IMG/VR virus record: IMGVR_UViG_3300030376_005008 | Coordinates: 1 to 61,055 of that record | From: a virus | Taxonomy: Duplodnaviria > Caudoviricetes | DNA: 61,055 nucleotides | Strand: one strand, 5' to 3' | Part shown: piece by piece, positions 26,279 to 61,055 of the stretch | Numbering within the stretch: the stretch's first letter is position 1 | Layout: the number at the start of each line of letters is the position of its first letter | The notes under the pieces: model-generated | The model's database searches: none | Seen by the model: the letters and a program-made list of their open reading frames with translations, nothing else | What the model was told of the DNA's origin: nothing | Program-made: the position numbers and the translations under genes

Positions 26279-26587
26279 GTGGTATGCATGGGTTTGGAAC
26301 TTCACACAATTGAGTTTTCAGACATCGAGCGTATGCAAAAACAAGCAATCCGTTCGGATGTCAACCTTGACCTCGGTGCTATTGCTGACGAAGACCGTCC
26401 TCTACATGGCGTTGTGAGTGAACAACGCAATCGAAATACCGAGGCCGCTGACATCCTTAACATCGGTAAAGGGACACGTTGTCAACACTGCGGCATGCTC
26501 CACTTCTTGTGGCGAGAAACATGTGGTGCATGTAAGCGCCCCATGGAATACAACCTCGGTCACCGAGACGAGGAGGCAAGAGAATGA
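26279..26587 (+). CDS. Zn-ribbon protein
   Basis: CQHCG...CGACK. The true start may be ATG ~26288. Confidence 0.7.
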   Translation: MVCMGLELHTIEFSDIERMQKQAIRSDVNLDLGAIADEDRPLHGVVSEQRNRNTEAADILNIGKGTRCQHCGMLHFLWRETCGACKRPMEYNLGHRDEEARE

Positions 26588-29401: not shown

Positions 29402-29411
29402 GGTGTAGAGC

Positions 29412-32752: not shown

Positions 32753-33027
32753 TCGAGGATTTCCTCGCACGCAAGGCTGTCAATAGCCCCGAAGATTTGG
32801 TCCTACAATTGGAATTGTGGGCTTACATGGTAGCAAAGCACTACGGAGTATCACTAAAGGAAGTAGATGAAATGAATCCAGATACTTTCCGCCGTTCTCT
32901 CGTATGGGCGCTTGTTGCGCGTAAGGAAGAGGAAAAGGCGAATAAGCGGCAACGCCAAGAGGCAAAGAGTGGTGGGCGAGAGACAGTGAGCGTTGACTAC
33001 TCGTTCCTTGATAGGGAGGACTTCTGA
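32704..33027 (+). CDS. Second tail-chaperone frame (probable -1 frameshift extension)
   Basis: The -1 frame is open from 32704 to 33027 (ORF track 32797..33027). WAYMVAKHYGVSLKEVDEMNPDTF resembles lambda gpT-like chaperone ends. Confidence 0.55.
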   Translation, partial: TCTDRARGVYEGRQRVVEDFLARKAVNSPEDLVLQLELWAYMVAKHYGVSLKEVDEMNPDTFRRSLVWALVARKEEEKANKRQRQEAKSGGRETVSVDYSFLDREDF

Positions 33028-47400: not shown

Positions 47401-50400
47401 TGCTGGACCTAACGTAGAGGCACTGATTGTTGGAAGCACCAGCACTCCAAGTGTTTCTGACTATACTGCGGCTAACGGATTAGATGCTGCACCATTTGAT
47501 GACACCTTCTTCCTTCACGATGCTATTAGTGCCGACACCAGCCTTGAGAACGCTACACCTTGTAGGGCTGAAACTGGTGACCTGTTTTACGACCTTGACC
47601 ATAGTATAGGCACTGAGTTCTCAGCCACTGCGACTGGGCAACGCAATGTAGTCAATGACTTCTATGCTGAGCCTTCCAACCGTCCATCTGCATTCTTTGC
47701 TAACACAGATACTGGGAAGTCATTCTTCATTGGAGATGTCAATGGATATGACTTCTACAGGCGCTCTCCCGCGAAGAACTTCAACATCGAGCATGCTATT
47801 TGGAAACGCATGGATGGTGGTAGTTTGTCCTTACCTACAATCAATGCGCGTGGTCTTGGTGCTATTCCTTGGATTAACCGCGTTAAGAGTAATACAGAAT
47901 ACACCATGGGTGAGAAGTTGTATGGAAATGTGCGATTCTCGTTTGAGACAACTAACAGTGCTATGATGCCTATTCTACAGGCACAAGAACTGGCGCACCC
48001 TCAATTGGCAGCGCGACACCCACATGAGTTGCGCAACATCTTGGAGATTCCAAATGAGGAGTTGCAATTCGAGGCAATGGAAGTTATTGATGACACAGGG
48101 CAGACGCACAAGATTGAGGGTGGTTCGCCGTTTGGTGTCATCATTCGTGCATTCCAAACAGCAGGTGAACGGCTTGCCAGTGGACTACAACCAGCCAATG
48201 CGAACAGTGGTATTGAGCCTAACCTGAAAGTTCGCTTACCTAACCCTGATGCGATACCGGGTAACATCATTGTGCGCTCAGGATATGATAGGTTGCAAGC
48301 CTACCAGAATGAGAACATTGGTGATGGTGGTATGCTACATCCTGACCTTGGAGCATCTCATGTTGGACATCTCTTTGACAATGCAATCAAGGGACCGCGT
48401 TATGGTCCTACGATGGGTGAGGTTGGTTGGGAACATATCTCACAGGGTGAGTCATTCCCCGACAGCACACGAGATGGTTGGACGGGCGCTACACAAGATA
48501 ACCCAATACAATCGTCTTACGAACTACATGACAGGACACTATTCTTCCATGTCACTAAGATGGGTCACAGTCACACAGAGCGTTATCCTGTGACTTACAA
48601 CCATACCAGCGGTGTTGTCAATCAATCTTTGACAGTGAGTAGTTTTAGCGGCACTACGCTGACTGCTTCAGCAACTGTCACATCTGCTGTCTTCGATGCT
48701 GACTTTGCATCAAAGGAGCGGAGTGATAATCGCCGCTTCCTACGACTCTCTACAGCCACAGAAACGGTAGTCGTATCCTATACTGGTATTAGTGGAGCAA
48801 CTTTTACTGGTGTTATAGGAGATATTGACTTCGACCAATTCCTTCTTGATAATCCACCTGCGACATCCACAATCAATATCTCACCCTCATACTATGTGCC
48901 AGCAGGTAGCACTCGTTTCTTTGCTGCTCGTCGTCTTCGTGACCATGCTGAAGTTAGTGGTAACAGCCCCGACATGGCACATACACTCTACTTCGATGGT
49001 GACCAGAACACACTCCTGCATACACGATATAGCAAGCCGCAGTTGACACCTATGCCATACCCGCGTATGGGTCACCACTTTGTCAACGCGACCATGCCTA
49101 TGCTACCGGGTCATTGGGCGCATCCTGCGTATCAGGGTCTTTACTCGCGCTCTCGTAGTGAAAATAGAGTATCTCGCGCTGATGAAGATTACATTACACT
49201 GAAAGACAACATTGGGCTGGTTGATACATCTCTTAGTTCTACAATCACAGACAAGATGCATCCACTCAATCCACCACTTCGCGTCGGCTCTTTGACAGCG
49301 TTGCCATCAGGACCAAGCGATATTCACGGTGGCGCTTTCACGCTGATGTTTGAAACCAAGGTCAAGTATGACGGGTATGGAATCCTTGCATCTAAGGGAA
49401 CTGCTGGTGACATGAACAAGGCTGGTGGTCACTCTATCGTTCTTGAAGCAGCAGGAAATTACACCCTTGACAGGCACTTCCCTGACCCCGCTGAGGTTGG
49501 TGCATATCAGATTGTTATACAACCCAATGTGCGTAAACAACAGATTGCAGGTTTCCATGCAAATCATAGTTCAGCCACCTCTTTACCAAATGGCTCTGCT
49601 GTAGAGTTGACCAGTCAACAAGTCAACCTCGTAGTCGGTATCAAGTATGATAGCGAGAGGGGTTCTGCTATCGGTGGCGTGACGTTAGTTCTCGCCGAGG
49701 CTACACTCGCGGATGTGCGTGGTTGTGAGGTGTTCATCAACGAGGTCATCCTTGACCATGACCCCGACCATGGTGGACAGTTCACTAACATACCACCGTT
49801 GTTGACTTACAACGCTCTCGGTGTGCAGGGTAATCAGAGTCCACCGTTTACTCGCTCTACACATGCGTATCATGTGGGTATGTTCAGTGATTCGACACCG
49901 GGGAGAACATTACACATCCCATGGTGGTCTATCATGCATAAGGTTGCACCTGATGATAGCACTGCTACTGGTTTTAGACATCTATCCCTCTGTCGTATTG
50001 ATAATTACTACGAGTTCTGTCGTGCCAGTTTTGGTTCAATTGGATGTCAATTAACTCTTGCTGGTTATCCAAGTATCTACCCTGATATGTATTCCAAGGT
50101 CTTGGCTAATGCAAGCCTTTCTCCTGCTATTACTGTTCAATCTACATCTTTTACGAATGCTACTTGTGATTACAACAACGACCCGACAATCGCGCACGAC
50201 GACGATGATGGACAAATCAAAGCCGGTATGTTGGTGACTGGCACTGGTATACCAGCGGGTGCTTTCGTTGCATCTGTCACAAGCGACACTGAGTTTGAAT
50301 TGAGTGCATCAACCACTGGTGGTGCGGTAACAAATGGCACCTTGACGTTCTACGGTATCGTAGTAGATGATGCGACACATCTTCCTGAAGTTCCTTACTA

Positions 50401-53400
50401 TGGACAGAAGTTGCAATACACAAAGAGTGACGGAACCACTGCTGAGTTTGATTATACTGTTCGTTCAGGCACAACAAACAACGCTACTACGATGAACAAA
50501 ACCAATCTAATCGTTGTCCCAACGACCACAACTATGCCTCAAAACGGCGCTGTTTTACGACTCACAAGGGAGTATTCGACTGCTGCTGCATCTTCTCTAT
50601 TCAATGATGGTAAGACCAGTGTGTTGACACGGACACTACCACAGATGTTGAGTGGCACAAGGGATACAAACAGCCTCCATACCCCTGATGCTTTCCTATG
50701 TATGTGGCATCCTAATCTCGGTCGCCCACATACTTTCTACTCCGATGGGTCAAGAACTTGGGGTAACCTCACCAGTGACCGAGCGGTCAACAAGGCTGCA
50801 TACAATAGTATGCCTGAGCACTTTGAGACAGTTCACTATCATGGTGCAAACTATGCTGTCAGCCATGGTCCATTCAACCTTGATATGAATACACCAAAGC
50901 CACCGACTAAGATTTCTCTTGCTGTTGCAAGTGTTGGAGCCACGTTCTTAACATTCTCAGGTAACGCTGCATCAGAAATGTCAGCAGGAACTCTGTTGTT
51001 TACATCAGATGGTTTGTTCATTGGTAAATCATCAGGCGCTGTGCATTTCTCAGGAACTACTACAGCGGGTTTCACAACTAATTTATTCAACAATCCGGGT
51101 GTGGGTGACTTCATTTACAAAGATGCAGATGGCTCTGTGGAAACTGCCACGAACATTCATGCTATGTCAGGATACGAAGCACAAGGTAGCGGCACAGTCA
51201 TGCTCAGTCACTACTGGCCTTGTGGTAGTCGAGGTGGTCTTCTCAATAGCCGTCTTGACGGTTATGCTGCATGGTCTGCTGCATGGCATGTTCCTCGTGC
51301 ATATACTGCTGCTGGGGCTACATACTGGACGGATGCTGATGATGATGGCTCTTATGCAGTAAGTAGTGGAATTACAACTGCTGCTGCTTCAACAATTACA
51401 ACGCGCCGCTATCCTTTCGGCTATCGTTTCGGCCTTCGCCAACCATGGAACAGACCGCAATGGGGGCACTACGGAATGCGAGCCTATCAAGAGGCCGCTA
51501 CACACGCAAGTGCAAGTAACTTCACAGTGGGTTACAAGGCTGGTCCGTTAGTTGAATATGAGACGCAGAGTTGGAATTATGCTGGAGGGGCTGGTCTTGC
51601 AAACAGCACTCTACCCGTCACCTATGTCGGTATGATGGAACGGCAGACCAACGCAGCGGCTATGCTTGGTGTAGACAAACCTGAGTGGCAAGTGCGATAC
51701 AGTGACGGTCGTCGTATGACGAGAAGTTACGGATGTCCTGTAAGGACACTAAGGGACACCAATAGTGTAGCCACTGCTACTCTCACAGTCACAGACGGTG
51801 ATGCCGCGAGTGGTATGAGTGAGAAGCAAACTATCGCAATTCAATCAACAGATGGCACAACGAGGATGTATACCTTAGTAGATGATAACGCCACTACTGT
51901 CGCAACGGGGGATGTTCTTGCTGCATCTTCTGACACAGGGGCCAGCACTGCTGGTGCTGACCTTGTCGGTGCTATCGCTGTAGCCATCAATCTAACTGGC
52001 TCTGCGTCCACACAGAATGCATATTTGGTGCAACTTAAGGCAGCGATAGAGCATGCGAATGGTCACAATGGTAAGATTACTGTCTCAGCAGTTCCTACTG
52101 AGGCTAACGGTAACCAAGCCATCACGCTCACACAAGCAAAGGCAGGTCTTGCGGGGAATACTACAATCACTGAGAATGTGGATAATCTAACTGAGGCTGA
52201 TTTCAGTGGTGCTAAAGCAGTGCCTCGTGACTGGTGGGGTGATAACGAAGCGTTGGGTGTCACTACGATTGATGCTGCCGTGGGATACTATCTTGTGGAT
52301 TGGTGGGGTAACACGCGTGGCGAAGATGTGCGTCGCGCACCAGTGCGTGGCTTCGGTATTCGCCCAGCATGGGATGCCGGTGATGCATACGAGTATGACC
52401 GCACCAACAACAGAACACCACACGCGAGGATTTGGAACAACGGTAAGCCTATCTTCAATGTCAAGGGTGTGTTAGATAGTAGTGGTAATCTTCTATCTGC
52501 CACCACTGCATCTATCCCTCGTTTCGGTGGAGCAAGGAACAGCACAAACAACAATGATTCCAACTCTCTCGTTGATGTGTTCGCGCCTACTAATGCTATG
52601 CGTGTAGGTGACATGGGTGGCGGTCGTGGTGTGCGTTACCCAACACAGTTCAACGAAGACCTATTGGTTGAATTAAGCGATGTCTACGAAGCATCCGGCC
52701 TTGTTCTCTCTCATCATACTGCTGAACCAGCGTTTGGTCAAGGATATGTGCGCCCACGAAACGACGCGCTACAATCTGATGAACTAAGGCGTGGTATCAG
52801 TGCTCGACTTGAGATTGACGAAGATGGTCTTCTCAAGCCTGAAGCAGTAGTCAGTGACCGAGTTGAAACGGTTAGTGGAACAAGCGTGCATAAAGACGCA
52901 GTATCTCGAACCAGTCCACGTATTGGTCTTGACGCAGAGGCGCTTGAGGCAATTTCAAGTGGTGTTGACAGGGACTATGTTGCTATCAACACCGAGGCTC
53001 ACAGCCTACACGCTGACCGTGGTGTAGGTCAACGTGTCATTCTTCATGGTGGTATGCAAGCAGGGTCGCAGACACTTGGTGATTATGACCTCAGAAGCCT
53101 ATCATTCGCCGCACAACCACACGGTGGTGTAATGCGATTCAGTCATACTTCTAACGTCAAACCAATGGGCGGTTCATACATCATCGAATCACGCTCATTC
53201 GTCAACCCATTCGATGATACAGGTTGGGGTCGTAGTAGTTTAGCCGGTGGAGAGAAAACAAGCAATCCATATCAAACCACAACATACGACAGCACAAGCG
53301 CACAGACAAACTACAAGGATACCAGTGTCAAGTTCATGCTACGACCAGTGCGTCTGCTTGATAACCAACATATCGAAGTATTCCGACCTGAACACAATCT

Positions 53401-53842
53401 ACACAGCAGTAGTCCACAAGACGGTGGCACTTTCTTTTCAGCAACTGCCGGTGGTAAGTATGGTCTGTTTACCTATGAAACAACCAGCGCACGCGCCGCT
53501 GATGGGTTCTTCATAGGTGGTAGTAATAATCCAGCAAGCAACGCACCATATCAACCAGTATACCTAATGGAGACAAGTAGTGATACTGTGCCAGTTGCAA
53601 AGGGACCAAAACTCCCCGGAACTGAAGCCACGGGCTTTGATAAGACCACACTGAAGAGCACAGTTAGTCGCCTTATTATCACTGAAAATACACTTCAGCA
53701 CTTCCGTAGTGACGCGCCTCGTAATACGGGTAATGAGAAGGATTTCACAGTCAAACCGCGCTTTAGTCAATCATTACACAGCAAGGGGCATAAAGAAGAT
53801 GTTACCTACAATACATCAGACCACAGCGGTGATGCCTCTTGA
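35462..53842 (+). CDS. Giant (6126 aa) tail / adhesin-like virion protein with an N-terminal LamG/concanavalin-like domain
   Basis: ALLFDGVTDSV...TIEAWV...HVVGV...RLYVNG...IYLGG...FRGVIESLHIS is a LamG-like pattern. 18.4-kb uninterrupted ORF in the tail module with repeated beta modules. Confidence 0.8.
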   Translation: MPAILQSNHALLFDGVTDSVIVPQGSHRGVGNDDASGNRSAGDILGDSASGDRGPSVVGDLFRNTITIEAWVTPDCGGIIALKEDQFSLEMGTVDTPGPAKFSVRLETQGGVNTYQVSTASLTSNGYSGTVYPTPDFGGVSDSYNRFDSDKDDATTLNLNHRHLYHVVGVVEPGFIRLYVNGLLMAQEKIPFQTSIIQSNNHIYLGGKGGQFRGVIESLHISNNFENEMLSPSAPLVQDSTALLYRFEEPINPIQNEYQIASISSASNLSAINISTSDAAALASALTGTTVTTGTIVFTDSPYSTGNYSVHDNVTGAGASPATRSIPHVPYNLLINPGAINRETNKPNQSPPERVRLHNINVSTGAMLVSSIHLDFATSATGDGLRPVLHSRSAATGDDYFVVVAADLLIEGGSGRPYQPPHLASQIIDRTGQMILDESNFEQHGIAYSSRMATTANDSNNPFAVSWPTSLDESFQVGHSGRHIKNHVNGHHYLRMLPKASDEMLDQQIGTSDIINLMYDDAARGIENQVPINSEMEYYREVASMEVVSVQDSSMAFEIVDNGLTGATREIIAIGGSGTKTITAEATFNPYPFFLKGPVPVSAETLDETERTHHLRPSRESRVAVLSVPSLASHGFASFIEVHYNALDLTGVSMGKTKPMLMVEKTVPAGSVQTAGSSFTDATCDYNNDPTIAMDATTNVRPGMRVSGTGIPAGAFVVSVTNSTTFELSAATTGGSKTNQTLTFTPAYIADIVAADLVNPATDTTLFSPGGMITMRMEEGNLNTLQMPHAMIGDVSEGYESDDELDERYTPQYYTTMSDEPRKTPQIITASHTNSDIHNSTFNRLLIGGSKVTKENIADTGRRGVFTDIGSPSDGQFDIPITRSASPVHEMFDIIDNHIQASSDPFILYIQPSDRTRTMQLNHLRAALDRPGEANTAQVLYMMSKGVLRSVTESDADNGGRFTSLQIVGTSSLVNTASTSEIGSGSPDSHVVKEIDPHAPVVTVSLGGPGQGAFDTKPSFDPSPLSRLPYSTRRGFSVMGQSVRIEPGGTQFITVRALNNATPDLQSWGTYPFPKKGRLFLKNGASAEYSSKSGVSFMFTDGTAGDGKFTLADGQDLGTFKAWSIASGLVPEAKDIVGSTFNDATCDTDHSAGSGTSFGSNPKIIQMDSTTNVKVGMTVSGTGIAAGSIVTQIDSATLFRVNLDTTATNNNQTLTFTLVGENFSLGEILLGDGHFYIENSAADGTTVNDRMFQSMDTATHDYQLGTQFASTRALVEIPLFAGQFFESAAESIFPGPDNSLKMHVDATMTAHTYNPSPVGRRFPDKAPADRAAKAAYAYSMERAEFTKRTTILLRAKDETANYHLYVNNPSAFPAAVTSASAYHNVDNVVLYRQAFLSNGEWILYDNDPASDGYLQFKNEDWAHSENFLNSHAPGMALLIADGYESERVIPIFSDDETLSSDFEGRGEYYHDQSSVKTQGGNVDYGLRQYVSAVEFKAGPSTNPHSPRVKSKRAAGVIRGVTPLMNQGNFSGVFTVTLSEEDAALFPAIDVNLDSGTVDFDTGDMFYTVEITLPDGTAQKCIYWGDGKATFSHANLLTFGSATVTTSEIPKSTIILETIESRPSLPNFLNETHSSFILGQPLKLTKKSFDPLSDFTSVQLRNNVNIARSDRPGNSSSWTIAAVPNANQITLGAPSGVHAGTLQFDNASWQGQFSAKVGDKIYAEPTVASGASNVLAVGSVMYLGEVTAISEVVINGSATVIGLASLADITGITGSVEADLGAMIAAGTVYLRVGVEELLTEDSEAILNRSWLFPYAQGGLREGDTVWANMTYNNPHAVEGLFAKSRGVLNEAMVCNVFNGGEGALNNNPRDSLPLENFLIGNSCYETAVNYVQHVNKTVELNYTNLGLSQPPTVAYLDPYLSNAGHARVLLFDVAHDREFIAFQDLHMQVQSSPMHAQIGWSRDVIGADLTRTQANLGGNHSPYSTQIDVAAGFPSQNPFVRSSSRSRFMESAYAHNRANYISSKLINPVDSSSGSGATTVPKVLLNNLDYSWLYGKAHQHYVHTGFEQGITLGEIALGDSVLPRTKEAVVSPKFADKLHPYTRKGRSAEHNLTVALREHRSPNFKTSIFSTASTIRDPSTLFDTPDGTRVIPAFLALKGIRSSSLDLSNHTEANQTSGRRGIKHLKQWTDMEFTRRLSIDLGEVGVRDGVTDVEAAAREVVRLINQAAAPNARTHVRRPNNNYPAENVVLDTDISSTPSLTRIDAAVPHVNADFAATGSTFDPADWWNDSSSEKPDKGTHMGYVRAHLGRVVQDSRGREGYSIIIHSTIPGATGRNFCVWLDNSKGQTPYEPEFLIGHGGRFRTFWCQPDEVSGENMHPAPMPLNKHGRPFAPITTLKQYTIPDNAGQQVSPSDEFGEAGKSSDESADPVNRAISTFIGAGKTHNTVNTESLEAEGFVTSLVSGLRTGTGAIGRVNFGGLVASGIPGFAPDAGEWGFGRRGDKRFSAYYGGVNVTDNAITVASCTTTANSTQVTFTNVATTHAIVEGMAVSGTGIASGTKIASITNATTFQLDVVATASGTVTLTFTPQAPVKYTPHVPESEVLNQNIGNTDLYGFRFIDHRGIGHGIRFVYRQFGQKFALENTELPDSINEEVMVYFDDRDVGQGGFTIGRHMHGSGDATGRFPASDSNATHVPWRGNHWNGVPSHNAAYDCEVTYDASAKTLTIEPQTPYNACPHHDMLGYMGFPLKNGVVQVSDPFNHSTMKGSQGHMFSYTSRTRATGSGTHVFYGVTGANFVASHKTDGSGGVTTVTHLFGDGANGEIRALISSTANWTCLITDELMAAVTTAVINAPALMSPNINSEEGLTFDCTHMYAADGKTFGEWGVDPEAIRIRAYNPAREIQPLSQFFEASIHKDMGIPAAHVEYGEISSLIVNADGITLPASSRAASNGEIDAGLRNPCGYIPRTVMQVRTKGKGSNTNTQSPVLVDTKNNPIDVSTWKKGLIGENYTADSGDHILPNIDNPTVQITKTDIYGSSAPPTTLSISTGEMWYFTRPAGEESATLSSKAKIVSFGDISTLYYGEKPALVTGIHSAGGGVSQTQFSILELQIGTADTINWPTADSATNAAMQRYGGTSRYGITGKRSLGSVNSVPQVFFRGAKDSTDHSVPLFFGGGFSGVVLDINDGTDTDYSSFNTHPYANGPTGCAGIQHANEVLSSHAMIDCNAIMAFFPGTPLLNQHRGSITPPFSNQDNVLSPDIKRGEHTVAANHPNAAPYTAGVHIQVPSPFVLRFAHPTARYGDAAAGTENKTTYLIYGPGQPFPFTQEVADSSGSHNVNEPHPGRAIVAGGSFSKVPHGGAAQYLPNHIENDQQHYMPMTSAYQVARGRFHWRQTLNWEPAIGKPNTGILYQRPEQGRMYGDMVNPLGDTPSTSNIADFRVLHPTRHALFMGGGMVSNSDWTWHMDGGYHPGGSWMDNQVSMNPAHPNGNTLVAKVAASNCSVHPTAFRVAGTLATRVMYGSSASFQVHTPDADDVDMEYIVIDGTRCQNGEELATIIGAGINTFPGAGALKAMGGTFMPSMGNALRQDRYGWKEFTVSAYRNDGSGVSGSGVDTTAGVTNSDRRTSATCYLDVATTLAAGEQVPASGWLRTKTLYTVAVSGGNSTAPAYAPYHTRILYTSNGSDYFIRFYLGYNYLTGTKGFETAETWHDIETAAASTGDPNDRIKDLIDTNDINLPTVAANDDILVWSKAGTFSYNNENASTRDHMTNVHFSGLHDAIDRTRPTGVVGWAGERYSYLNSLLVGSSYAAGLGAWHTALGFSPYGNANSCMTTLSHLPHTAPMPNSGESIRPDESYTHFPGTGGDPPYDSLGSMTNEARVTSSYEAYVPGYADVSGFNSTPTYYSEENIPSELRHPQGVSARAFLVVAYESELPLVAKYDRDGITCTGDWLLAEQQGNKAKAGTTRWDERIHGQDRFTCTANAGPNVEALIVGSTSTPSVSDYTAANGLDAAPFDDTFFLHDAISADTSLENATPCRAETGDLFYDLDHSIGTEFSATATGQRNVVNDFYAEPSNRPSAFFANTDTGKSFFIGDVNGYDFYRRSPAKNFNIEHAIWKRMDGGSLSLPTINARGLGAIPWINRVKSNTEYTMGEKLYGNVRFSFETTNSAMMPILQAQELAHPQLAARHPHELRNILEIPNEELQFEAMEVIDDTGQTHKIEGGSPFGVIIRAFQTAGERLASGLQPANANSGIEPNLKVRLPNPDAIPGNIIVRSGYDRLQAYQNENIGDGGMLHPDLGASHVGHLFDNAIKGPRYGPTMGEVGWEHISQGESFPDSTRDGWTGATQDNPIQSSYELHDRTLFFHVTKMGHSHTERYPVTYNHTSGVVNQSLTVSSFSGTTLTASATVTSAVFDADFASKERSDNRRFLRLSTATETVVVSYTGISGATFTGVIGDIDFDQFLLDNPPATSTINISPSYYVPAGSTRFFAARRLRDHAEVSGNSPDMAHTLYFDGDQNTLLHTRYSKPQLTPMPYPRMGHHFVNATMPMLPGHWAHPAYQGLYSRSRSENRVSRADEDYITLKDNIGLVDTSLSSTITDKMHPLNPPLRVGSLTALPSGPSDIHGGAFTLMFETKVKYDGYGILASKGTAGDMNKAGGHSIVLEAAGNYTLDRHFPDPAEVGAYQIVIQPNVRKQQIAGFHANHSSATSLPNGSAVELTSQQVNLVVGIKYDSERGSAIGGVTLVLAEATLADVRGCEVFINEVILDHDPDHGGQFTNIPPLLTYNALGVQGNQSPPFTRSTHAYHVGMFSDSTPGRTLHIPWWSIMHKVAPDDSTATGFRHLSLCRIDNYYEFCRASFGSIGCQLTLAGYPSIYPDMYSKVLANASLSPAITVQSTSFTNATCDYNNDPTIAHDDDDGQIKAGMLVTGTGIPAGAFVASVTSDTEFELSASTTGGAVTNGTLTFYGIVVDDATHLPEVPYYGQKLQYTKSDGTTAEFDYTVRSGTTNNATTMNKTNLIVVPTTTTMPQNGAVLRLTREYSTAAASSLFNDGKTSVLTRTLPQMLSGTRDTNSLHTPDAFLCMWHPNLGRPHTFYSDGSRTWGNLTSDRAVNKAAYNSMPEHFETVHYHGANYAVSHGPFNLDMNTPKPPTKISLAVASVGATFLTFSGNAASEMSAGTLLFTSDGLFIGKSSGAVHFSGTTTAGFTTNLFNNPGVGDFIYKDADGSVETATNIHAMSGYEAQGSGTVMLSHYWPCGSRGGLLNSRLDGYAAWSAAWHVPRAYTAAGATYWTDADDDGSYAVSSGITTAAASTITTRRYPFGYRFGLRQPWNRPQWGHYGMRAYQEAATHASASNFTVGYKAGPLVEYETQSWNYAGGAGLANSTLPVTYVGMMERQTNAAAMLGVDKPEWQVRYSDGRRMTRSYGCPVRTLRDTNSVATATLTVTDGDAASGMSEKQTIAIQSTDGTTRMYTLVDDNATTVATGDVLAASSDTGASTAGADLVGAIAVAINLTGSASTQNAYLVQLKAAIEHANGHNGKITVSAVPTEANGNQAITLTQAKAGLAGNTTITENVDNLTEADFSGAKAVPRDWWGDNEALGVTTIDAAVGYYLVDWWGNTRGEDVRRAPVRGFGIRPAWDAGDAYEYDRTNNRTPHARIWNNGKPIFNVKGVLDSSGNLLSATTASIPRFGGARNSTNNNDSNSLVDVFAPTNAMRVGDMGGGRGVRYPTQFNEDLLVELSDVYEASGLVLSHHTAEPAFGQGYVRPRNDALQSDELRRGISARLEIDEDGLLKPEAVVSDRVETVSGTSVHKDAVSRTSPRIGLDAEALEAISSGVDRDYVAINTEAHSLHADRGVGQRVILHGGMQAGSQTLGDYDLRSLSFAAQPHGGVMRFSHTSNVKPMGGSYIIESRSFVNPFDDTGWGRSSLAGGEKTSNPYQTTTYDSTSAQTNYKDTSVKFMLRPVRLLDNQHIEVFRPEHNLHSSSPQDGGTFFSATAGGKYGLFTYETTSARAADGFFIGGSNNPASNAPYQPVYLMETSSDTVPVAKGPKLPGTEATGFDKTTLKSTVSRLIITENTLQHFRSDAPRNTGNEKDFTVKPRFSQSLHSKGHKEDVTYNTSDHSGDAS

Positions 53843-53955
53843 CCAATCTTGAATTGTTCACAATTTCACTGATAGGTGGGTTCTTCATCGGTATTTGCAT
53901 AGGTCTGCATATTGCTATGAGTCGTGAAGACGCTGCACGTTGGAGTGATGTCTGA
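53839..53955 (+). CDS. 38-aa single-TM peptide (not in ORF track)
   Basis: TTG start overlaps the giant gene stop (TTGA) after a GGTGA RBS. Sequence LTNLELFTISLIGGFFIGICIGLHIAMSREDAARWSDV. Its stop overlaps the next ATG (TGATG). Confidence 0.6.
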   Translation: MTNLELFTISLIGGFFIGICIGLHIAMSREDAARWSDV

Positions 53956-56543
53956 TGCTTCCAATGGACCTCGCTATGCGGTTGCTGAAAGAACAAATAG
54001 ATTATGAGAATCAAATGGAACTTGCCCCTCACGAGCAACTATGGAACGATGAGGCTGATGAACACCTTAAAACCAAAACAAATGAATTATTTGATTATGC
54101 GATAGCGCAGGGGATTGACCCCGGTGATTTATTGGACGCATGGCACGATAGAGCCTCTATGGTTGAAGGGCTTGATTATGGTGAGCCGGGAAGTGAATTA
54201 GGATTTAGAGCGCACGCTGTTGACCCTTCACAATGGAAGAAGTTAGCCAGCGAACCAATGGACCTCGCTATGCGGTTGCTCAAACGCCAAACAGAATTAG
54301 GAGAGCACCGGGGCTTTGAAGATGAAGCATTTTCATCTCATGGTCCGGTAACTCATTATCATGCAACAAAAGCACCGGAAGATGCTGAATCCATAAAGGG
54401 ACATGGTATTCGACCTGCGGGAAATTATGCTACGCACAGTGGTGGTAAAACAAAGTCAATATATTCTTATTTAGTAGATAATATGGATTTAGAAAACACA
54501 GAGCCTTTGATTTGGGCTACAGGTGAAGGACAGGAGTTACCTATTGAATATGCAGGGACTTATAATGATAAATGGGTAGGAGAGCCACAATTTGATGAAA
54601 GTGGGATGTTAATTCCCGGAACAGGCCCATCTCGTGAAAGAGAGTTTCAAGAAGGGGGGATGTTTGGTATCAGGGGTGGTGATATAGATTGGGAAAGGTC
54701 GCAATCTCCCATTTATAGACAAGGTGAGGAGTTCTATATTCACAATCAGCCTATTCCAAGAGAAAAAATTATCCCTATGCCTGTCCAAACAGGCGAATCA
54801 ATGGACCTCGCTTGGCGGTTGCTCAAGATGTCTGAGGCTGAAATGAGGGAAGCGGGTTATCTTGATTATTACAGTCCTGAAAATATTGCGAATTATTATC
54901 AAAAAAGAAGAATGCGATATGGTAGCCGATTACCAAGTAATCTGCGTAATGAGATTATATCAGAACAATTAGCCCGGGGAAATAGGATGTTAGCGGCAGG
55001 TATACCTGAAGAACTAATGTATGCACATCACGATTATCCACCACTTTTAGAAGCAAGAATGAATGTTCCCGAAAGAAAATTACATTTATTACCATATGAA
55101 GCAGACGAAAGAAGTCAAATTGCGGACTTAGAAGATGTAGCAAGTAAAATAGATATGAATCCACGCGCTGTTTACAACAATCAAAGATTGTTTAGGCAAA
55201 TGATACCTGAAAACTTCGCGATGGAAGAGCCTGAAATAGAGCAAGAGCAAATTATTGAAGAATCACCAATCCCGGGTATGGTTTTCATTAACGGTGTATT
55301 AAGCGTTGACCCCCGAAATCAAAAAAGCGAACCAATGGACCTCGCTTGGCAGTTGCTCAAACGCCAACCGGGACAACCGGAACTTGGTGAGTTTCATCCC
55401 GATTTACCTTCTTCGCAGGGGCCGATAGTAGCGTATCATGGTAAAGGAGTAAACGAAGATAGGCGAAGGAAGTTTCAAACTGAAGGTATTCTACCAGTTG
55501 ATACACCAGAGGCTCAAATAGGCAGTGGTAGATATGTGCAACAACAACAAGGTAATGATGCGTATTGGAATCGTGATATTCCAGCAAATGTTTCTGTAAC
55601 TGGTGATTTGAGCACAGCACAGGAGTTTGCTACCCACGGAACCCGCGTAGATGGAAATCCATTGCAAGGTCGTCCTGATTCAGAGGAGGTGGTTTATGGA
55701 GTAAGAGCAGGAGCATTAGCGAACCAACTTCCTATGGACGACCCGCGTCGTTTATCTGCCCAACACTTACCGGAGGTTGGAAGAGAAGGAGGAGGAGCAA
55801 AAACTCACCGTTTCATAGCGGGAGGTATAGCACCAGAGGCGCTGCATGCATTTTCTGGACGAGATGCGCAAAAACATGCAGGTGGACATTGGGCGCGAAA
55901 CTTAGGACAATTCCAAACACATGGTCCAGACAAAGTTTACTGGGATTCATTGGATGAATATGAATATGAAAATCCCCGACCACGGGAGTTTATTGACGAC
56001 TACTTTAGGGAGGGAAACCCCGCATACAAAGAGTGGTCTGATGCGCAAGGGCGAGCAGCATTTTCAGGAAGAGAACAATGGATAGATGACCAAGTTTCTA
56101 ACTGGCAAGCACAGCAAGCACAGCAAGCACAATTACAACAACAACTGCAACTACGACAACAGCAGCAGCAGTCAATGATGAACCCTGACCCGTCTGGACA
56201 AACGACTCTGAATACGTTTCAAACAGGCGAACCAATGGACCTCTCTTGGCGGTTGCTCAAGGAGAAGAAGCCTGACCCACGCCTGAAAGCGGCAGGAGTG
56301 AGTGGATATAACAAACCGAAGCGCACGCCAAACCATCCAAAGAAATCACATGTGGTTGTAGCAAGGTCAGGTGGTAAGGTCAAAACAATTCGATTCGGTG
56401 AACAGGGCGCAGACACTGTTACAGAAGATAATCCAAAAGGTAAGAGAGCAAAGAAGCGAGCGTCGTTCAAAGCCCGACATCAGAAAAATATCAAACGAGG
56501 ACCAATGAGTGCGGCATATTGGGCGGATAAGGTGAAGTGGTAA
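53955..56543 (+). CDS. Modular polyprotein: five MDL(A/S)(W/M)(R/Q)LLK-tagged cassettes, including two ADP-ribosyltransferase-like domains and a C-terminal basic viral domain
   Basis: Five tag copies. ART-like YHAT..SIKGHGIRP and YHGK..FQTEGILP..SVTGDLSTAQEFA. C-terminal KTIRFGEQGA...ASFKARH...SAAYWADKVKW. Confidence 0.85.
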   Translation: MLPMDLAMRLLKEQIDYENQMELAPHEQLWNDEADEHLKTKTNELFDYAIAQGIDPGDLLDAWHDRASMVEGLDYGEPGSELGFRAHAVDPSQWKKLASEPMDLAMRLLKRQTELGEHRGFEDEAFSSHGPVTHYHATKAPEDAESIKGHGIRPAGNYATHSGGKTKSIYSYLVDNMDLENTEPLIWATGEGQELPIEYAGTYNDKWVGEPQFDESGMLIPGTGPSREREFQEGGMFGIRGGDIDWERSQSPIYRQGEEFYIHNQPIPREKIIPMPVQTGESMDLAWRLLKMSEAEMREAGYLDYYSPENIANYYQKRRMRYGSRLPSNLRNEIISEQLARGNRMLAAGIPEELMYAHHDYPPLLEARMNVPERKLHLLPYEADERSQIADLEDVASKIDMNPRAVYNNQRLFRQMIPENFAMEEPEIEQEQIIEESPIPGMVFINGVLSVDPRNQKSEPMDLAWQLLKRQPGQPELGEFHPDLPSSQGPIVAYHGKGVNEDRRRKFQTEGILPVDTPEAQIGSGRYVQQQQGNDAYWNRDIPANVSVTGDLSTAQEFATHGTRVDGNPLQGRPDSEEVVYGVRAGALANQLPMDDPRRLSAQHLPEVGREGGGAKTHRFIAGGIAPEALHAFSGRDAQKHAGGHWARNLGQFQTHGPDKVYWDSLDEYEYENPRPREFIDDYFREGNPAYKEWSDAQGRAAFSGREQWIDDQVSNWQAQQAQQAQLQQQLQLRQQQQQSMMNPDPSGQTTLNTFQTGEPMDLSWRLLKEKKPDPRLKAAGVSGYNKPKRTPNHPKKSHVVVARSGGKVKTIRFGEQGADTVTEDNPKGKRAKKRASFKARHQKNIKRGPMSAAYWADKVKW

Positions 56544-56580
56544 TATGAAACCAATGGACCTCGCTTGGCGGTTGCTCAAG
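53961..56580 (+). repeat. Six dispersed ~30-bp direct repeats, consensus CCAATGGACCTCGCTTGGCGGTTGCTCAA(G/A)
   Basis: Copies start at about 53961, 54255, 54798, 55332, 56232 and 56551, with at most 3 mismatches each to the consensus and variable 0.3-0.9 kb spacing. Confidence 0.95.
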
Positions 56581-56730
56581 GTTGATGATGAAATACCGGA
56601 TTTTAGTGATGAGCCTGTTGACCAATGCGAAATGTGCAACAAATATCTCCATGATTCAGATTACCATGTCCTAAATGACCACAATTTTTGTAGCGATTGC
56701 TATAATCAATTGGCTGAGGAGGGAATGTGA
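56545..56730 (+). CDS. Small Zn-finger protein with an N-terminal PMDLAWRLLK tag
   Basis: MKPMDLAWRLLK then CEMC...FCSDC. AGGTGA RBS. Confidence 0.8.
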   Translation: MKPMDLAWRLLKVDDEIPDFSDEPVDQCEMCNKYLHDSDYHVLNDHNFCSDCYNQLAEEGM

Positions 56731-58157
56731 TGCCTTACCTCGCCAAGCAACGATTGACTGGTGATAGCAATGTCGTCATGAAACATGTGCGTAAGCCTAA
56801 GTTCGTGGACAACGCTGTGCATGTTGGTGAGATTACAATGCAAGGTAATACCCAGCAGAAGGTAACAGTCAGAAAACGCAATTCTACTAATTTCGCTATC
56901 GCATCAGAGCGTGCATATGAGTTGACTGAGGTCGAAGGAGGTATGCGAATCATGCAACCTCAAGTCGCTGGACATGAGAATACATCTTCGCCGATTTATA
57001 TAGGGTCATTATTGGATGATACTGCTGCTTTAAATAGGCCACCGCTGATTTTCTCTGCCGACAACCCTTCTTTGCGCCTTGTCCCCGGCTCAGTTTTGTC
57101 GTCTGGTAAGGGAGTAGTCCTTGCTTTACGCAATCTACAGGGTGGCACTGCTGCTGACCTTGGTTTCCAATCCACACGTGGGCACCTTGGTCAGACGTTA
57201 GATGTTGGATTACGAACAACAGACATGGCTCTACGTCTTGGTCGTGTCATTGAAGAATCACTTGCTTCAGTCAATATCGCTCTACCTCGCACACCAACGA
57301 ATGCTACCAAAGATAGACGTAAGCATAGCACTGAGTTCGTCGCATTCGACTTCTATGATGTCAACGTCATGGAGGCTCTACGCTTCCTTGGTAGACACGA
57401 TAACCGCATCATCTACTTCGATGCATATGGAAACATGCTTTACATTCCATTCAACTTTGGTGGAGCAGGTAGATTACTTGATTCTAAGACCCGCACAGGG
57501 CCAAGTGCTACCAATCCAATATCAAACACACCTAACCGCATCGCTGTGCAAGGATTCCCAAAGGCACTCAATCAATCAGCCTTTGCTCTGGTTAATGACG
57601 GTGAGAGACAGAGCGGTCGTATAGGAGACATACAAGCCGCACCCGAGATTATTGAAGACATCACGGTCAACAGTGATAGGGAAGCCCGTCGTGTTGCATT
57701 GAATATTCTCAAGGCTAACAATGCCGAGGCTGGAAGTAAAAGCAGTAAGGGTCATCTTGAAGCATGGGACTTACGACCCGGTAAGATTGTTGAGTATGAC
57801 GGCGTGAGGCGCATCATCACAGAATCGAGACATTCGCTTAGAACAGGCGAAAGTGACTTTGTTTTCTTGATGGTAGATACAGGCGTCGAGGGAGTGCTAC
57901 AGGGTATCAAGGCTGGTATATCTTTGAGTGCAAAGGCAAGGGCAGAGATTGAACAAGTGAGTGAATTGAATATGTCCTTGTTTGGTGACATCAGAATCAA
58001 CACTATCCCAATCATTCAAGTGAAGCAGCACGGTGCATCAGGCACAGGGTTCATCATTGGGAAGGCGATGGCGAGGGGAACAATCGGAGGAACCAGTTCG
58101 CAAGAGGTCGTCGGCGGCAGTAAGTCCATACCAGTAGTATTCAGAGGTGATATGTGA
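56727..58157 (+). CDS. Putative tail-tip / baseplate hub-like protein
   Basis: NVMEALRFLGRHDNRIIYFDAYGNMLY, NRIAVQG, IEDITVNSDREARRVALNIL and WDLRPGKIV resemble hub (gp27/Tal-like) proteins. Confidence 0.55.
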   Translation: MMPYLAKQRLTGDSNVVMKHVRKPKFVDNAVHVGEITMQGNTQQKVTVRKRNSTNFAIASERAYELTEVEGGMRIMQPQVAGHENTSSPIYIGSLLDDTAALNRPPLIFSADNPSLRLVPGSVLSSGKGVVLALRNLQGGTAADLGFQSTRGHLGQTLDVGLRTTDMALRLGRVIEESLASVNIALPRTPTNATKDRRKHSTEFVAFDFYDVNVMEALRFLGRHDNRIIYFDAYGNMLYIPFNFGGAGRLLDSKTRTGPSATNPISNTPNRIAVQGFPKALNQSAFALVNDGERQSGRIGDIQAAPEIIEDITVNSDREARRVALNILKANNAEAGSKSSKGHLEAWDLRPGKIVEYDGVRRIITESRHSLRTGESDFVFLMVDTGVEGVLQGIKAGISLSAKARAEIEQVSELNMSLFGDIRINTIPIIQVKQHGASGTGFIIGKAMARGTIGGTSSQEVVGGSKSIPVVFRGDM

Positions 58158-60065: not shown

Positions 60066-61055
60066 CTACTCACTTCCACGCCTTCCAATCACATCATCAA
60101 TGCGTAGGATGGCTGTAGCAACCTCAGTAGCGCTGGTGATAGCACTACGGATGAGAGACATAGGTTCGTAGATGGACATCTCAGTCATGTCACAGATACC
60201 ACCATTGTCGGTATCAGGACCGTAGCATGTCTCTCCTTCGATGACCTTGTTACGCATGGCGAGGATAGTGTCCAACGCATCGTGACCAGCGTTCTCAGCG
60301 ATAGTGCCGGGGATAGCCTCCAGAGCGTCACAGAATGCTTCGATAGCCATCTGCGCACGACCACCCACCTCAGCAGCACGGGAGCGCATAAACACTGCAA
60401 GGGAGAGATATGTTGCTCCACCACCAATGCAGACCTCATCACCGTTAGCAACGAGTGAGACGACACCAAGAGCATCATCGAACCCACGTTGCACCTCATC
60501 GAGTGTGGACTGTGTCGCGCCGAAGAGAATCAAAGTAGCCTCTGTTTCGCTACCTGTCACGAATAGATAGTCCACATCGTTCAGTCGTTTACGAGATACA
60601 TGGACCACAGATGTTTCCATATCATCCTCAGGAGTTTGGTAAATGACTGCGCCTGTCTCATTATTCAATCGCTTCATAGTGCTTGGTGGCACTCTTCGAC
60701 AGATGAAGATATCACGTTTACGCAGGTATTGAATGATGGTGTCATGCACTCCGTCACGCACGAATACTACCTTAGCACCAATGTCTTCAATTTGCTTCGC
60801 AGAGGCGAGCATCTGCTCACGGTCAGCGTTCTTGATAGAACTGTAGTTTGTGGCATCAACCTGAACCTGCACGTTTCCTTCCTGCTTCTGTGGCTCCAAA
60901 CCACCATTGATGAGTAGGATTGGGGTGTCACTTCCTTCCCATTTACCATCTGCTGTGACGAAGTCCTTGTTGACTACAACTCCGTTGAACAGATAGGAAT
61001 CATTGAGAGAGCCACCGGGTGCAGCGAGAATCTTCACATCAGATGCATCACCTGC
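60066..61055 (-). CDS. ths: Group II chaperonin (thermosome subunit), 3' part; 5' end lies beyond the window
   Basis: DSYLFNGVVVNK, ATLILFGAT...LDEVQRGFDDAL, GGGA, AIEAFCDALEAIPGTIAENAGHD, IYEP and ATEVATAILRIDDVI. The frame is open to the window edge. Confidence 0.9.
   Translation of the reverse strand, partial: AGDASDVKILAAPGGSLNDSYLFNGVVVNKDFVTADGKWEGSDTPILLINGGLEPQKQEGNVQVQVDATNYSSIKNADREQMLASAKQIEDIGAKVVFVRDGVHDTIIQYLRKRDIFICRRVPPSTMKRLNNETGAVIYQTPEDDMETSVVHVSRKRLNDVDYLFVTGSETEATLILFGATQSTLDEVQRGFDDALGVVSLVANGDEVCIGGGATYLSLAVFMRSRAAEVGGRAQMAIEAFCDALEAIPGTIAENAGHDALDTILAMRNKVIEGETCYGPDTDNGGICDMTEMSIYEPMSLIRSAITSATEVATAILRIDDVIGRRGSE

Follow-up and report, generated by a model that had tools for sequence, protein, structure and literature searches.

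A Translated Repeat at the Sites of Cassette Turnover in the Structural Gene Block of a Tailed Virus

Introduction

In polymorphic toxin loci, such as those for contact-dependent growth inhibition (CDI) and Rhs proteins, a short motif (VENN in the former, DPxGL in the latter) marks the border between the constant and the variable part of the protein, and the DNA that encodes the motif serves as homology when toxin tips are swapped. The Rhs demarcation motif is, in addition, a cleavage site. Here, we analyse a locus at 53955-56730 of the virus record IMGVR_UViG_3300030376_005008, where small coding segments are each preceded by a near-identical translated word. The whole IMG/VR record, 61,055 bp and estimated to be 57% complete for a genome of about 107 kb, is referred to as the window. 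The repeated word will be called the tag, a small domain together with its tag a cassette, and the row of cassettes the array. The original prediction, made from the sequence alone, was that the repeats act as homology anchors for the gain, loss and reordering of cargo, in the manner of an integron or a polymorphic toxin array but without a dedicated integrase.

Several systems of tailed phages have features in common with such a locus. In T4, the internal proteins (IPs) reach the prohead core by means of a leader of 10-19 residues, which the prohead protease cuts off (PMC9026906, section 2.6), and after injection Ip1-3 each block a different type IV restriction enzyme (PMC12373910). The IP loci of the T-even phages encode unrelated small proteins with a common leader of about 10 residues and are highly polymorphic among close relatives (PMC3012670, PMC9026906, PMC12373910, PMC2839356); a conserved sequence beside the IP genes is thought to confine shuffling to these loci (PMC2839356). 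Promoter early stem-loop (PeSL) shuffling in T4-type phages uses non-coding promoter/terminator elements of about 100 bp, which are repeated between accessory genes and serve as homology when single open reading frames (ORFs) are excised, inserted or replaced in near-identical genomes; it needs no dedicated recombinase and is compared to integrons by its authors (PMC2839356). Polyvalent proteins (Iyer et al. 2017, PMC5512222) hold several unrelated enzymatic domains per polypeptide, are encoded among virion genes, and are predicted to be packaged and injected.

When the window is compared with related genomes, two words are found to be the sites at which cassettes are inserted, deleted, replaced and fused: the tag unit (36 nt) and a connector (17-20 nt), which joins a ribosome-binding site, a stop codon and a start codon. 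The connector is a second anchor that the original prediction had overlooked, as it had overlooked that the repeat is also a conserved peptide that has a function of its own.

Results

Six In-Frame Copies of One Repeat

The repeat occurs in six direct copies on the + strand, starting at 53961, 54255, 54798, 55332, 56232 and 56551, with start-to-start distances of 294, 543, 534, 900 and 319 nt. The copies have 0-1 mismatch to the consensus in a pattern match, a repeat finder returns the same six, and the pattern has no match in 100 dinucleotide-preserving shuffles of the window, which bears out both the predicted positions and the predicted spacing of 0.3-0.9 kb. The core measures 29-30 nt, and copies 2-5 have up to 12 further bases in common upstream of it (…RGCGAA). 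Longer flanks are, as had been noticed, common to pairs of copies (AGCGAA...CGCCAA in copies 2 and 4, CAAACAGGCGAA in copies 3 and 5), and the full repeat unit is thus 36-42 nt rather than 30.

All six copies are read in frame, five of them within an ORF of 862 aa (53955-56543) and the sixth three codons into an ORF of 61 aa (56545-56730). They encode P/S-M-D-L-A/S-W/M-R/Q-L-L-K, or (G/S)-E-P-M-D-L-A-(W/M)-R-L-L-K when the upstream residues are included. Synonymous variation across the copies is confined to two sites (CTC/CTG, AAA/AAG), against five sites with non-synonymous variation (P/S, A/S, W/M as two bases, R/Q), and the predicted conservation even at synonymous positions is thereby confirmed. 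So is the contrast with the tag copies elsewhere in the window. In the peptide at 11586-11615 (+), P-I-D-L-A-W-R-L-L-K, which lies in an ORF at 10878-11750 and is followed by a CxxC...CxxC tail, 6 of the 8 degenerate codons are not those of the array consensus. Other codons are also used by two diverged N-terminal tags, M-S-P-F-E-V-S-W-Y-L-L-K at 11762-11791 (+, ORF 11756-12343) and M-R-A-F-D-L-A-W-S-V-L-K at 26590-26619 (+, ORF 26584-27036).

A connector stands at either end of the array. The left one, GGAGTGATGTCTG followed by ATG (53942-53957, +), contains a ribosome-binding site, the stop codon of a small upstream ORF and the start codon of the array ORF; the right one, GGAGGGAATGTG followed by ATG (56717-56732, +), contains a ribosome-binding site, the stop codon of the array and the start codon of a conserved 476-aa ORF. 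The left connector word also separates free cassettes in relatives, where it is identical at 6639 and 7049 of locus L008, and a variant, GAGGTGATATGTGATG, occurs at 7516 of L007 and 1992 of L025. The small upstream ORF (53850-53954), which has a hydrophobic stretch (…GGFFIGICIGLHIAMSREDAARWSDV), terminates within the left connector with the residues SDV-stop, and the same connector word ends the free cassette at 6639-7049 of L008.

From the left connector onward, tags and cassettes alternate on the + strand. Tag 1 (53961-53990, P-M-D-L-A-M-R-L-L-K), which is N-terminal (M-L-P-M-D-L...), precedes cassette A (53991-54248, about 86 aa). Tag unit 2 (54249-54284, AGCGAA plus 30 nt, S-E-P-M-D-L-A-M-R-L-L-K) precedes cassette B (54285-54791), and tag unit 3 (54792-54827, GGCGAA plus 30 nt, G-E-S-M-D-L-A-W-R-L-L-K) precedes cassette C (54828-55325, about 166 aa). 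Then follow tag unit 4 (55326-55361, S-E-P-M-D-L-A-W-Q-L-L-K, a repeat match) with cassette D (55362-56225), and tag unit 5 (56226-56261, G-E-P-M-D-L-S-W-R-L-L-K) with cassette E (56262-56543, 93 aa, basic). These five tag-prefixed cassettes make up the polyprotein-like 862-aa ORF, and tag 6 (56551-56580, M-K-P-M-D-L-A-W-R-L-L-K) with cassette F, a small zinc-finger-like domain, makes up the free 61-aa ORF. That the sixth cassette is a separate ORF, and that cassettes can be fused or free, had been proposed from the window; in relatives, fused and free forms of one and the same cassette are found. The segments between the tags had been called largely unrelated, and there is indeed no intra-protein BLASTP match at E ≤ 1e-4, but the second and fourth cassettes (B and D) are distantly related according to hhalign. 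The A-richness attributed to them also stands in part: the AT skew is 0.13-0.23 over 54-57 kb and -0.03 to 0.10 in the 10 kb upstream, but the region at 22-23 kb is equally skewed.

Cassette Turnover between Constant Flanks

Relatives were sought with the downstream 476-aa ORF in viral and metagenome contig collections, and five further loci hold both flanks of the array. Across the six loci, identity is 97-99% for the protein of the 476-aa ORF and 93-99% for the flanking DNA (blastn); the last 4 kb or so of the 6126-aa ORF directly upstream are 93-99% identical among close relatives. Between these flanks the arrays differ in six of six loci, with cassette counts of 1, 1, 1, 2, 3 and 6. The window has A-B-C-D-E fused and F free. 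L007 has one cassette of putative ADP-ribosyltransferase fold. L008 has three free ORFs (a GNAT-like one, one with HD_4, and one of 168 aa with the diverged tag F-T-F-A-W-R-L-L-K), and L179 has the GNAT-like ORF of L008 alone. L176 has a cassette G and then a tag that abuts the stop codon, and L178 has G, a GNAT-like cassette and the same terminal tag. The terminal tag in L176 (2693-2731) and L178 (4966-5004) is a full tag followed by E-E-M-stop, directly abutting the right connector, and resembles an 'empty slot' from which a cassette has gone or which could receive one; in other loci, ten more tags also end no further than 8 residues from a stop codon.

On the left, all comparisons break at 53989-54014 of the window, no more than 25 nt from the point where tag 1 ends. 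On the right, homology always resumes at 56717/56718 (L007, L008, L176, L178, L179, L180), 12-13 nt before the ATG of the next gene, and the right connector is the right-hand limit of all variation.

To exemplify, consider L176 and L178, which differ by 489 nt and are 99.3-99.5% identical on both sides of the difference. L178 equals L176 with one cassette and one tag added, and the two homology blocks overlap by 39 nt in L176, which is exactly one tag unit; an overlap of this kind would be the footprint of an exchange between two tags. L179 and L008, in turn, are two whole ORFs apart, and here the blocks overlap by the 20 nt of the connector GGAGTGAT(A/G)T(G/C)TGATG. Loci that are more distant, but at the corresponding place, behave alike. 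Two cassettes (687 nt) are present in L017 and absent from the otherwise equal L012, and each junction is 1-2 nt away from a tag edge. Residues 314-468 of L012 are 100% identical to a free ORF of L025, yet in L012 they are fused behind a remnant, '..ALLK'. L020 and L025 have 264 residues in common at 98.5% identity and differ in their upstream parts. The window and L084 have only 56227-56589 in common, a stretch that comprises tags 5 and 6 with cassette E and the stop/start between them. This block begins 5 nt before 56232, homology with L015 stops 1 nt after tag unit 5, and what comes after cassette E is a different cassette in each of the window, L084 and L020. In L177 (93-287), the window's cassette F, in a block that is 97.9% identical from window position 56536, has the tag F-D-I-A-W-R-L-L-K with several other codons; since this tag and tag 6 of the window differ around the same cassette, tags can change while cargo stays.

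The ends of homology blocks (at least 150 nt, at least 85% identity) were counted among eight loci, and 22 of them lie inside arrays. Nine of the 22 are within 12 nt of a full tag, against 3.4 expected if endpoints were uniform. Four are at the right connector and seven at the edges of one cassette with remnant-tag neighbours (..LLK, ..VLK, ..VIK); one is 14-17 nt past a tag, one is near a contig end, and none of the 22 is clearly inside a cassette. Cassette number and content thus vary among relatives with breaks at the repeat, as predicted for an anchor. Gain, loss and replacement, together with fusion and splitting, are seen; only reordering of the same cassettes, which had also been proposed, is not shown.

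Uniformity of the Tag DNA

The strict DNA pattern of the tag finds 18 stretches in IMG/VR, and a pattern open to all synonymous codons detects at least 138 tag sites in viral contigs of IMG/VR. In 596 Gb of bacterial and archaeal genomes the latter pattern has 7 sites, against about 6 expected by chance, and one of them is a true tag. It is on L171, a 16-kb contig binned in a metagenome-assembled genome of Parvibaculum sp., with a 'AAGGEMIQMSEP-tag' stem as in several viral contigs; this is probably a viral contig binned by mistake. In the collected loci, 133 distinct ORFs contain 189 distinct tag contexts, a single ORF having as many as 8 tags, and the complete relatives each have an array. 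Their consensus, x-(T/A/K/R)-(G/S)-E-P-M-D-(I/L)-A-(W/M)-(R/Q)-L-L-K, is unbiased only at positions other than P, M, D and K, which the synonymous-codon pattern fixed. Internal tags (n = 168) have Glu at -2 in 141 cases and Gly or Ser at -3 in 153, and N-terminal tags (n = 17) have the start Met at -3 in 15 and Glu at -2 in 2; 4 contexts are unclassified, and 11 of the 189 tags lie within 8 residues of a stop codon.

Codon choice was assessed for 140 tags from the codon-neutral search (L027 onward, with the window and the strict-pattern loci set aside), with the same ORFs outside their tags as background. Certain codons are strongly over-represented in the tags: CGG for Arg (45% in tags and 5% in background), TTG for Leu7 (69% and 22%), CTC for Leu8 (40% and 10%), ATC for Ile (71% and 20%), GCT for Ala (70% and 31%), CCA for Pro (68% and 29%) and GAC for Asp (72% and 39%). 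At -2, the GAA/GAG choice for Glu is near background, and Ser at -3 is AGC or AGT in 35 of 45 cases, one base from the Gly codons GGC and GGT. The nucleotide sequence of the array tags is therefore kept far more uniform than the peptide demands. Since the same tag word persists where capsid proteins are only 72-84% identical, while the non-array tags of the window have drifted, repeated exchange may have homogenised the tag DNA, possibly aided by selection for a good homology patch.

A Role for the Tag Peptide

The tag peptide is retained, with different codons, at three separate loci in the virion block of the window. One of these, at 26.5 kb, also appears to be built as a conserved neighbour plus a tagged variable gene: the upstream neighbour (26279-26587) has relatives in 12 tag-bearing loci, and the tagged ORF (26584-27036) has none there. 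A phmmer search with the L007 cassette against 1.84 billion representative proteins gave 49 relatives, among which 21 have the strict tag, and 26 others that were inspected begin with a looser form, M-x-P-(M/F)-(D/E)-x-(A/V)-W-x-(L/I/V)-(L/I)-K, just before the conserved RQT(E/T)LGEFHPDFPS. Since other loci and distant homologues retain the peptide although their codons have diverged, the tag has a role at the protein level as well. AlphaFold2, from a 25-row alignment of short single-domain members of the 49, gives a model with pLDDT 82 in which the tag is a helix at residues 3-11; the helix is predicted to be short, amphipathic and basic.

By analogy with T4, the tag may be a capsid-targeting or processing signal. 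Three features fit a function in the loading of virions: the tagged genes stand among virion genes, fused and free cassettes are equivalent, and Glu at -2 belongs to internal (141 of 168) and not to N-terminal tags (2 of 17). The window encodes a prohead serine protease (S78) fused to a scaffold-like C-terminal half (22293-23654, +), which is a candidate for the enzyme that would process tagged proteins. S78 proteases may cut after Lys; a literature search on the cleavage specificity of the HK97 protease returned nothing. In six relatives, (L/I)(L/I)K is conserved at residues 32-34 of the capsid protein (ELLK|AD), at 17-19 of the protease (LLK|G) and at 170-172 on the protease/scaffold boundary (ILK|ED). 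One may speculate that both proteins are cut at these places during maturation and that the LLK at the end of the tag is a site of the same kind, a speculation because such tripeptides are common. A complex prediction with the capsid protein, the protease-scaffold protein (residues 12-453) and a tagged protein of putative ADP-ribosyltransferase fold gave scores of 0.00 and 0.00, with no controls, and nothing is drawn from it.

Domains Carried behind the Tag

Pfam (E ≤ 0.001) was applied to 72 of the 124 tagged ORFs with at least 60 aa, the others being mainly short 630-nt loci. No family was assigned in 58 of the 72; the others have DUF5872 (7), HD_4 (3), GNAT (2), a DnaJ-type zinc finger (1), and DUF3293 with a sub-threshold S-adenosylmethionine-lyase (1). 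No PADLOC model matched any of 13 tagged ORFs. Rough single-linkage clustering gives 112 cassette families, a count in which 86 sequences are lumped into one false family. It is from the domain types and their context that the cargo may be labelled as effectors.

In the window, the 862-aa ORF as a whole has no Pfam family, and cassettes A, B, C and D have no Pfam match even at E 0.5. Cassette A has relatives at 34-39% identity in L065 and L069, and cassette C at 37-43% in L051, L063 and L152, likewise behind tags; the ESM Atlas yields nothing for cassette C (best score 0.76). Cassette E (residues 771-862 of the ORF) is phrog_7595 (E 1e-33), a family common in marine phages, and its copies in L084, L020 and L107 are 100% identical in amino acids. 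Cassette F has weak RING-like zinc-finger matches, all under the Pfam cut-off.

Cassettes B and D are assigned, with moderate confidence, to a family with a putative ADP-ribosyltransferase fold and the motif RQTELGE...YH(G/A)T, to which the L007 cassette also belongs. Hhalign to A1 gives probability 99.0, E 3e-18 and 54 columns for cassette B, and probability 99.2, E 2e-19 and 95 columns for cassette D, a divergent second member with an extension whose Q-rich end is also found in L015. A profile search of PDB sequences with the RQTELGE family has 30 of 30 weak matches in the ADP-ribosyltransferase superfamily, PARP16 being the best (E 0.01), with archaeal RNA 2'-phosphotransferase KptA/Tpt1, exotoxin A, PARP15 and DarT among the others. 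Foldseek with the model of the family places KptA/Tpt1 first (E 2.9e-3, probability 1.00, TM 0.29-0.41), followed by PARPs, pertussis S1, Arr and DarT, so that all top hits are of this fold, and the ESM Atlas gives a weak PARP lead. As candidates for catalytic residues (H-Y-E or R-S-E type), the family has three conserved features: the His in YHGT, the stretch (F/Y)V(S/T)T and, in G(I/V)R, an Arg that does not vary. The L007 cassette has no tblastn match in phage records.

Tags and Cassettes in Public Sequencing Runs

Part of 53400-57300 of the window is present in twenty public runs from 16 studies, and the Logan contigs of four of the twenty were placed on the window. Run X2, which is unlikely to be the source sample, has all cassettes at 100% identity, in pieces broken at tags. 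Depth heaps up in the bins that hold tags in four of four runs, reaching 73-82 against 3-7 alongside in X4 and X5. The contigs enter different sequences right after 54283/54284 (the end of tag unit 2, in X4 and X5), 56260 and 56580, which are tag ends, and before 54784 (in X3) and 56551. The tag is thus common to many more sequences than any single cassette is. The joints in the Logan contigs have short sides (22-33 nt) and may merely reflect the repeat, and the uncovered parts of the array in X3-X5 are no evidence of absence.

The Virus and Its Gene Order

The array is situated late in the structural gene block, between the 6126-aa ORF and the conserved 476-aa ORF, the latter being without a known family. 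The block contains the large terminase (9409-10893), the portal (13634-15397), the prohead protease, the major capsid protein (23690-24865), a tape-measure-like protein (33027-34166) and the 6126-aa ORF (35462-53842, +), whose only family match is Laminin_G_3/concanavalin-like, near residues 134-223. A Cpn60/TCP-1 chaperonin (60066-61037, Pfam E 1.8e-74, GroEL-like in PHROGs) is encoded on the opposite strand and extends past the contig end. Between the terminase with its neighbouring tagged ORFs and the portal, a 405-aa ORF (12417-13634, +) has an HNH endonuclease match (phrog_5046, E 2.4e-9). The portal ends in low-complexity GGGMP(M)P repeats (PPQGGGMPPGGGMPMPQGGGMPMPQGGGMP..., window 15100-15397). 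Between portal and protease, a 1842-aa ORF (16734-22262, +) has no PHROG or Pfam family; in many phages, the gene at this place encodes a MuF-like head protein to which polyvalent effectors are anchored.

Among 50,697 phage records, the capsid protein has matches only in 8 records of Haloarcula tailed viruses (33-34% identity) and 1 record of a Methanofastidiosa virus. Long tag-bearing contigs have a capsid protein 72-95% identical to that of the window in 10 of 10 tested, and two of them, at 106.9 and 107.6 kb, have direct terminal repeats. A family B DNA polymerase is present in 5 of 5 tested relatives and is split in the two closest of the five (84% capsid identity), where 471 and 349 aa are encoded by adjacent ORFs (G004 29184-30328, G005 73771-74918); in the three more distant relatives it is whole. 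According to Philosof et al. (2017, PMC5434244), magroviruses have structural genes like those of haloviruses, encode a polymerase of their own, which is split in group B1, and also carry genes for GroEL or the thermosome. Because the halovirus-like capsid, the chaperonin and the (split) family B polymerase match that description, and with a genome of about 100 kb, the virus is classed, on gene content as compared with that description, as a magrovirus-like tailed virus of marine archaea. By the same paper, its host would be Poseidoniales.

Discussion

We consider it probable that the locus is a polymorphic array of tagged cassettes, which is shuffled by homologous recombination and in which the tag loads or processes the cargo for the virion and for delivery. 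Each cassette consists of one small domain with the tag (G/S)-E-P-M-D-(L/I)-A-(W/M)-(R/Q)-L-L-K, a predicted short amphipathic helix, and the cassettes are joined in one ORF or parted by the compact ribosome-site/stop/start connector. The cassettes would be shuffled in frame by general homologous recombination during replication or co-infection, with tags pairing either inside one genome or across the genomes of relatives in the same cell, and the products would remain translatable because the main anchor is a fixed in-frame word. Repeated exchange would at the same time homogenise the tags. In the protein, the tag would be a common handle that brings the cargo that follows it into the assembling virion, as the capsid-targeting sequence (CTS) of T4 does, and it may mark a site where the prohead protease cuts the polyprotein, either after LLK or after the conserved Glu. 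The cargo (domains of putative ADP-ribosyltransferase fold, HD, GNAT and zinc-finger domains, and many without assignment) may be delivered with the DNA to counter host defences or to take over the host. A wider claim, which we put forward tentatively and rate at somewhat below even chances, is that the tag is the universal loading and release signal of the lineage, by which whatever protein stands behind it would be packed into the virion, freed by cleavage and injected into Poseidoniales cells, and that the array works as an in-frame effector integron by means of a homogenised 36-nt translated word, cassettes passing from genome to genome by plain homologous recombination without a recombinase of the virus's own.

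Several observations weigh against this account. The presence of tagged proteins in virions, their cleavage and their injection are argued from analogy and gene position. To call the cargo anti-defence effectors is a guess, given that 58 of 72 ORFs are without Pfam family and that PADLOC has no match; the ADP-ribosyltransferase assignment has weak scores (E 0.003-0.01), and the fold of cassettes B and D is assigned through the family. The 11 of 189 tags within 8 residues of a stop codon fit ill with a purely N-terminal signal, and some junctions retain only a tag remnant, which shows that fused proteins do not all require a complete tag. The 140 tags of the codon analysis are related by descent and not independent, and their common codon choice is partly due to descent. 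All genomes are short-read metagenome assemblies, in which a repeat of 30-36 nt can make assemblers misjoin strains. No single contig or read in the Logan data of the four runs spans the whole array, and the cassette order of the window is without independent confirmation. That misassembly at the repeat explains the whole pattern is nevertheless unlikely.

The alternative that survives best, although we regard it as unlikely, is that the array is shuffled as proposed and the tag works after synthesis in some other way, as a helix that docks the cargo to a hub protein of host or virus or to the membrane, as an oligomerisation handle, or as an internal translation start at an in-frame ATG preceded by GGYGAA, from which each cassette could be made separately. 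In favour are the short, amphipathic and basic helix and the tags at the C-terminal end (the 11 of 189), and packaging is a proposal by analogy. An internal start would agree with the Met of 159 of 168 internal tags, a number inflated by the requirement for ATG in the search pattern for seed tags, and with GGT GAA as the -3/-2 codons in 29 of 132 cases, which gives GGTGA 4 nt before the ATG. But at -3, 69 of 132 codons are GGC or AGC, both of them poor as part of a ribosome site, and free cassettes begin three codons before the tag Met, behind a strong GGAG(G)TGA site. The reading of the Gly-Glu codons as a ribosome site was accordingly judged weak, and a 2A-like ribosome-skipping peptide was dropped, since free ORFs begin with the same tag. 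Against all of these roles speaks the position of all three tagged loci of the window inside the block of virion genes, and one short leader on diverse enzymes is the known pattern of the T4 internal proteins (PMC3012670, PMC9026906).

It is improbable that the tag matters as a peptide only, with a DNA sequence that is uniform through recent tandem duplication of the leader of one founder cassette and breakpoints that fall at tags incidentally. Copies within one array should be young, and descent inflates the codon statistics. However, the segments between the tags are unrelated, and cassettes were therefore not duplicated to make tags. The same codon choice is also seen in contigs with capsid proteins 72-84% identical, the non-array tags have drifted at 6 of 8 degenerate codons, pairs that differ by an insertion or deletion overlap by exactly one tag unit, and 9 of 22 endpoints, against 3.4 expected, are at full tags.

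Slightly less credit still is given to the possibility that the mosaics are assembler artefacts at a 30-36 nt repeat and that the real genomes are less variable. Several contigs do stop within an array, both ends of contig G003 have tags, the Logan contigs are interrupted at each tag, and no read spans the array. But array length differs by whole in-frame cassettes between identical flanks in different collections, the one-cassette arrays of L007, L179 and L176 have no internal repeat at which a misjoin could arise, and the same blocks recur at 97-100% identity in separate assemblies. The many unitig-level continuations after the tag amount to real diversity, even if some orders are wrong.

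Least probable of all is a dedicated site-specific recombinase, encoded elsewhere in the genome of about 107 kb, that recognises the tag DNA in a true integron-like system: the window covers only about 57% of the genome and the conserved 30-nt core could be a protein-binding site, but the window ORFs include no integrase or recombinase family (PHROGs, Pfam), the window has no attC-like inverted repeats (a single 15-nt pair lies 1165 nt apart), and crossovers that also occur at the unrelated connector, with remnant tags of varying length, point to homology-driven exchange without a fixed site.

If cassettes are shuffled through the tag as proposed, the locus is a clean natural case of a translated linker that doubles as a recombination site, through which domains are gained, lost, fused and split without a break of frame, and it is relevant to the evolution of polyvalent and polymorphic proteins. 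In the surface ocean, magroviruses belong to the most abundant viruses of archaea; they and their hosts are uncultured, and hardly anything is known of how they counter host defences. A single short motif picks out the probable accessory or effector repertoire of this lineage, with at least 138 sites in IMG/VR and roughly 112 cassette families, mostly of no known family. Should the tag be a loading signal, the capsid-targeting principle of T4 would extend to archaeal viruses, with a tool for packaging foreign proteins in HK97-type capsids. Should it load, release and inject cargo, it would be the first capsid-targeting signal, with the first repertoire of injected effectors, known for archaeal viruses; to our knowledge, neither injected effectors nor targeting signals have been described for archaeal tailed viruses. 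No description of the tag or the locus was found in openly accessible literature: the main text of the magrovirus papers PMC5434244, PMC11706807 and PMC10160649, searched by keyword, has no mention of polyproteins, hypervariable loci or cargo loci, and a full-text search for the tag strings together with a keyword search gave nothing relevant.

How, then, does the array compare with described systems? With the T-even IP loci it has in common a short leader on unrelated small proteins in polymorphic loci, but the leader is not homologous to that of T4. A tblastn search with the 862-aa ORF against the 50,697 phage records matches with its last cassette only, in roseophages and cyanophages, and PHROGs gives no IP family. 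The virus is, moreover, archaeal with a protease of HK97/S78 type and not of T4 type, the tag is mostly internal (168 of 189) in polyproteins with up to 8 tags, packaging and cleavage are here proposed by analogy, and the anchor is the coding tag, in contrast to the promoter/stem-loop elements beside the IP genes in PMC2839356.

With polyvalent proteins the locus has in common multi-domain ORFs in a virion context (five cassettes here, up to 8 tags in relatives) and some of the domains (putative ADP-ribosyltransferase and GNAT, with ParB-like motifs by eye only). Pfam scans of the window ORFs and of the 72 tagged ORFs have no MuF, portal-fusion or zincin-like peptidase domain. The array is set apart by one fixed peptide tag between domains, by cassettes that are fused or free, and by extreme variation in near-identical genomes; the words 'linker' and 'shuffling' are absent from the available text of PMC5512222.

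Polymorphic toxins differ from the array in setting, which here is viral, and in that many cassettes stand in series, where toxin loci have one tip plus orphans, have no secretion or trafficking domain, and are not each followed by an immunity gene; no small intervening ORFs are found between successive cassettes. PeSL shuffling differs in its non-coding anchor; here the main anchor is translated, and exchange has to preserve the frame and does. A closer counterpart of a PeSL is the ribosome-site/stop/start connector. Integron arrays are likewise rows of promoterless cassettes in the same orientation and with variable number and content, but here there is no IntI, attI or attC, and the row is translated through as one protein. 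An integron proper was rejected, with no IntI near the array and no attC (window ORFs, PHROGs and Pfam) and with repeats that are direct and coding; the likeness to an integron that had been proposed holds as far as the lack of an integrase and of attC-like repeats in the window, and the array is not a member of that class. The nearest analogues are thus the T-even IP/CTS system with respect to function, polyvalent proteins with respect to architecture, and polymorphic-toxin motifs together with PeSL shuffling with respect to evolution.

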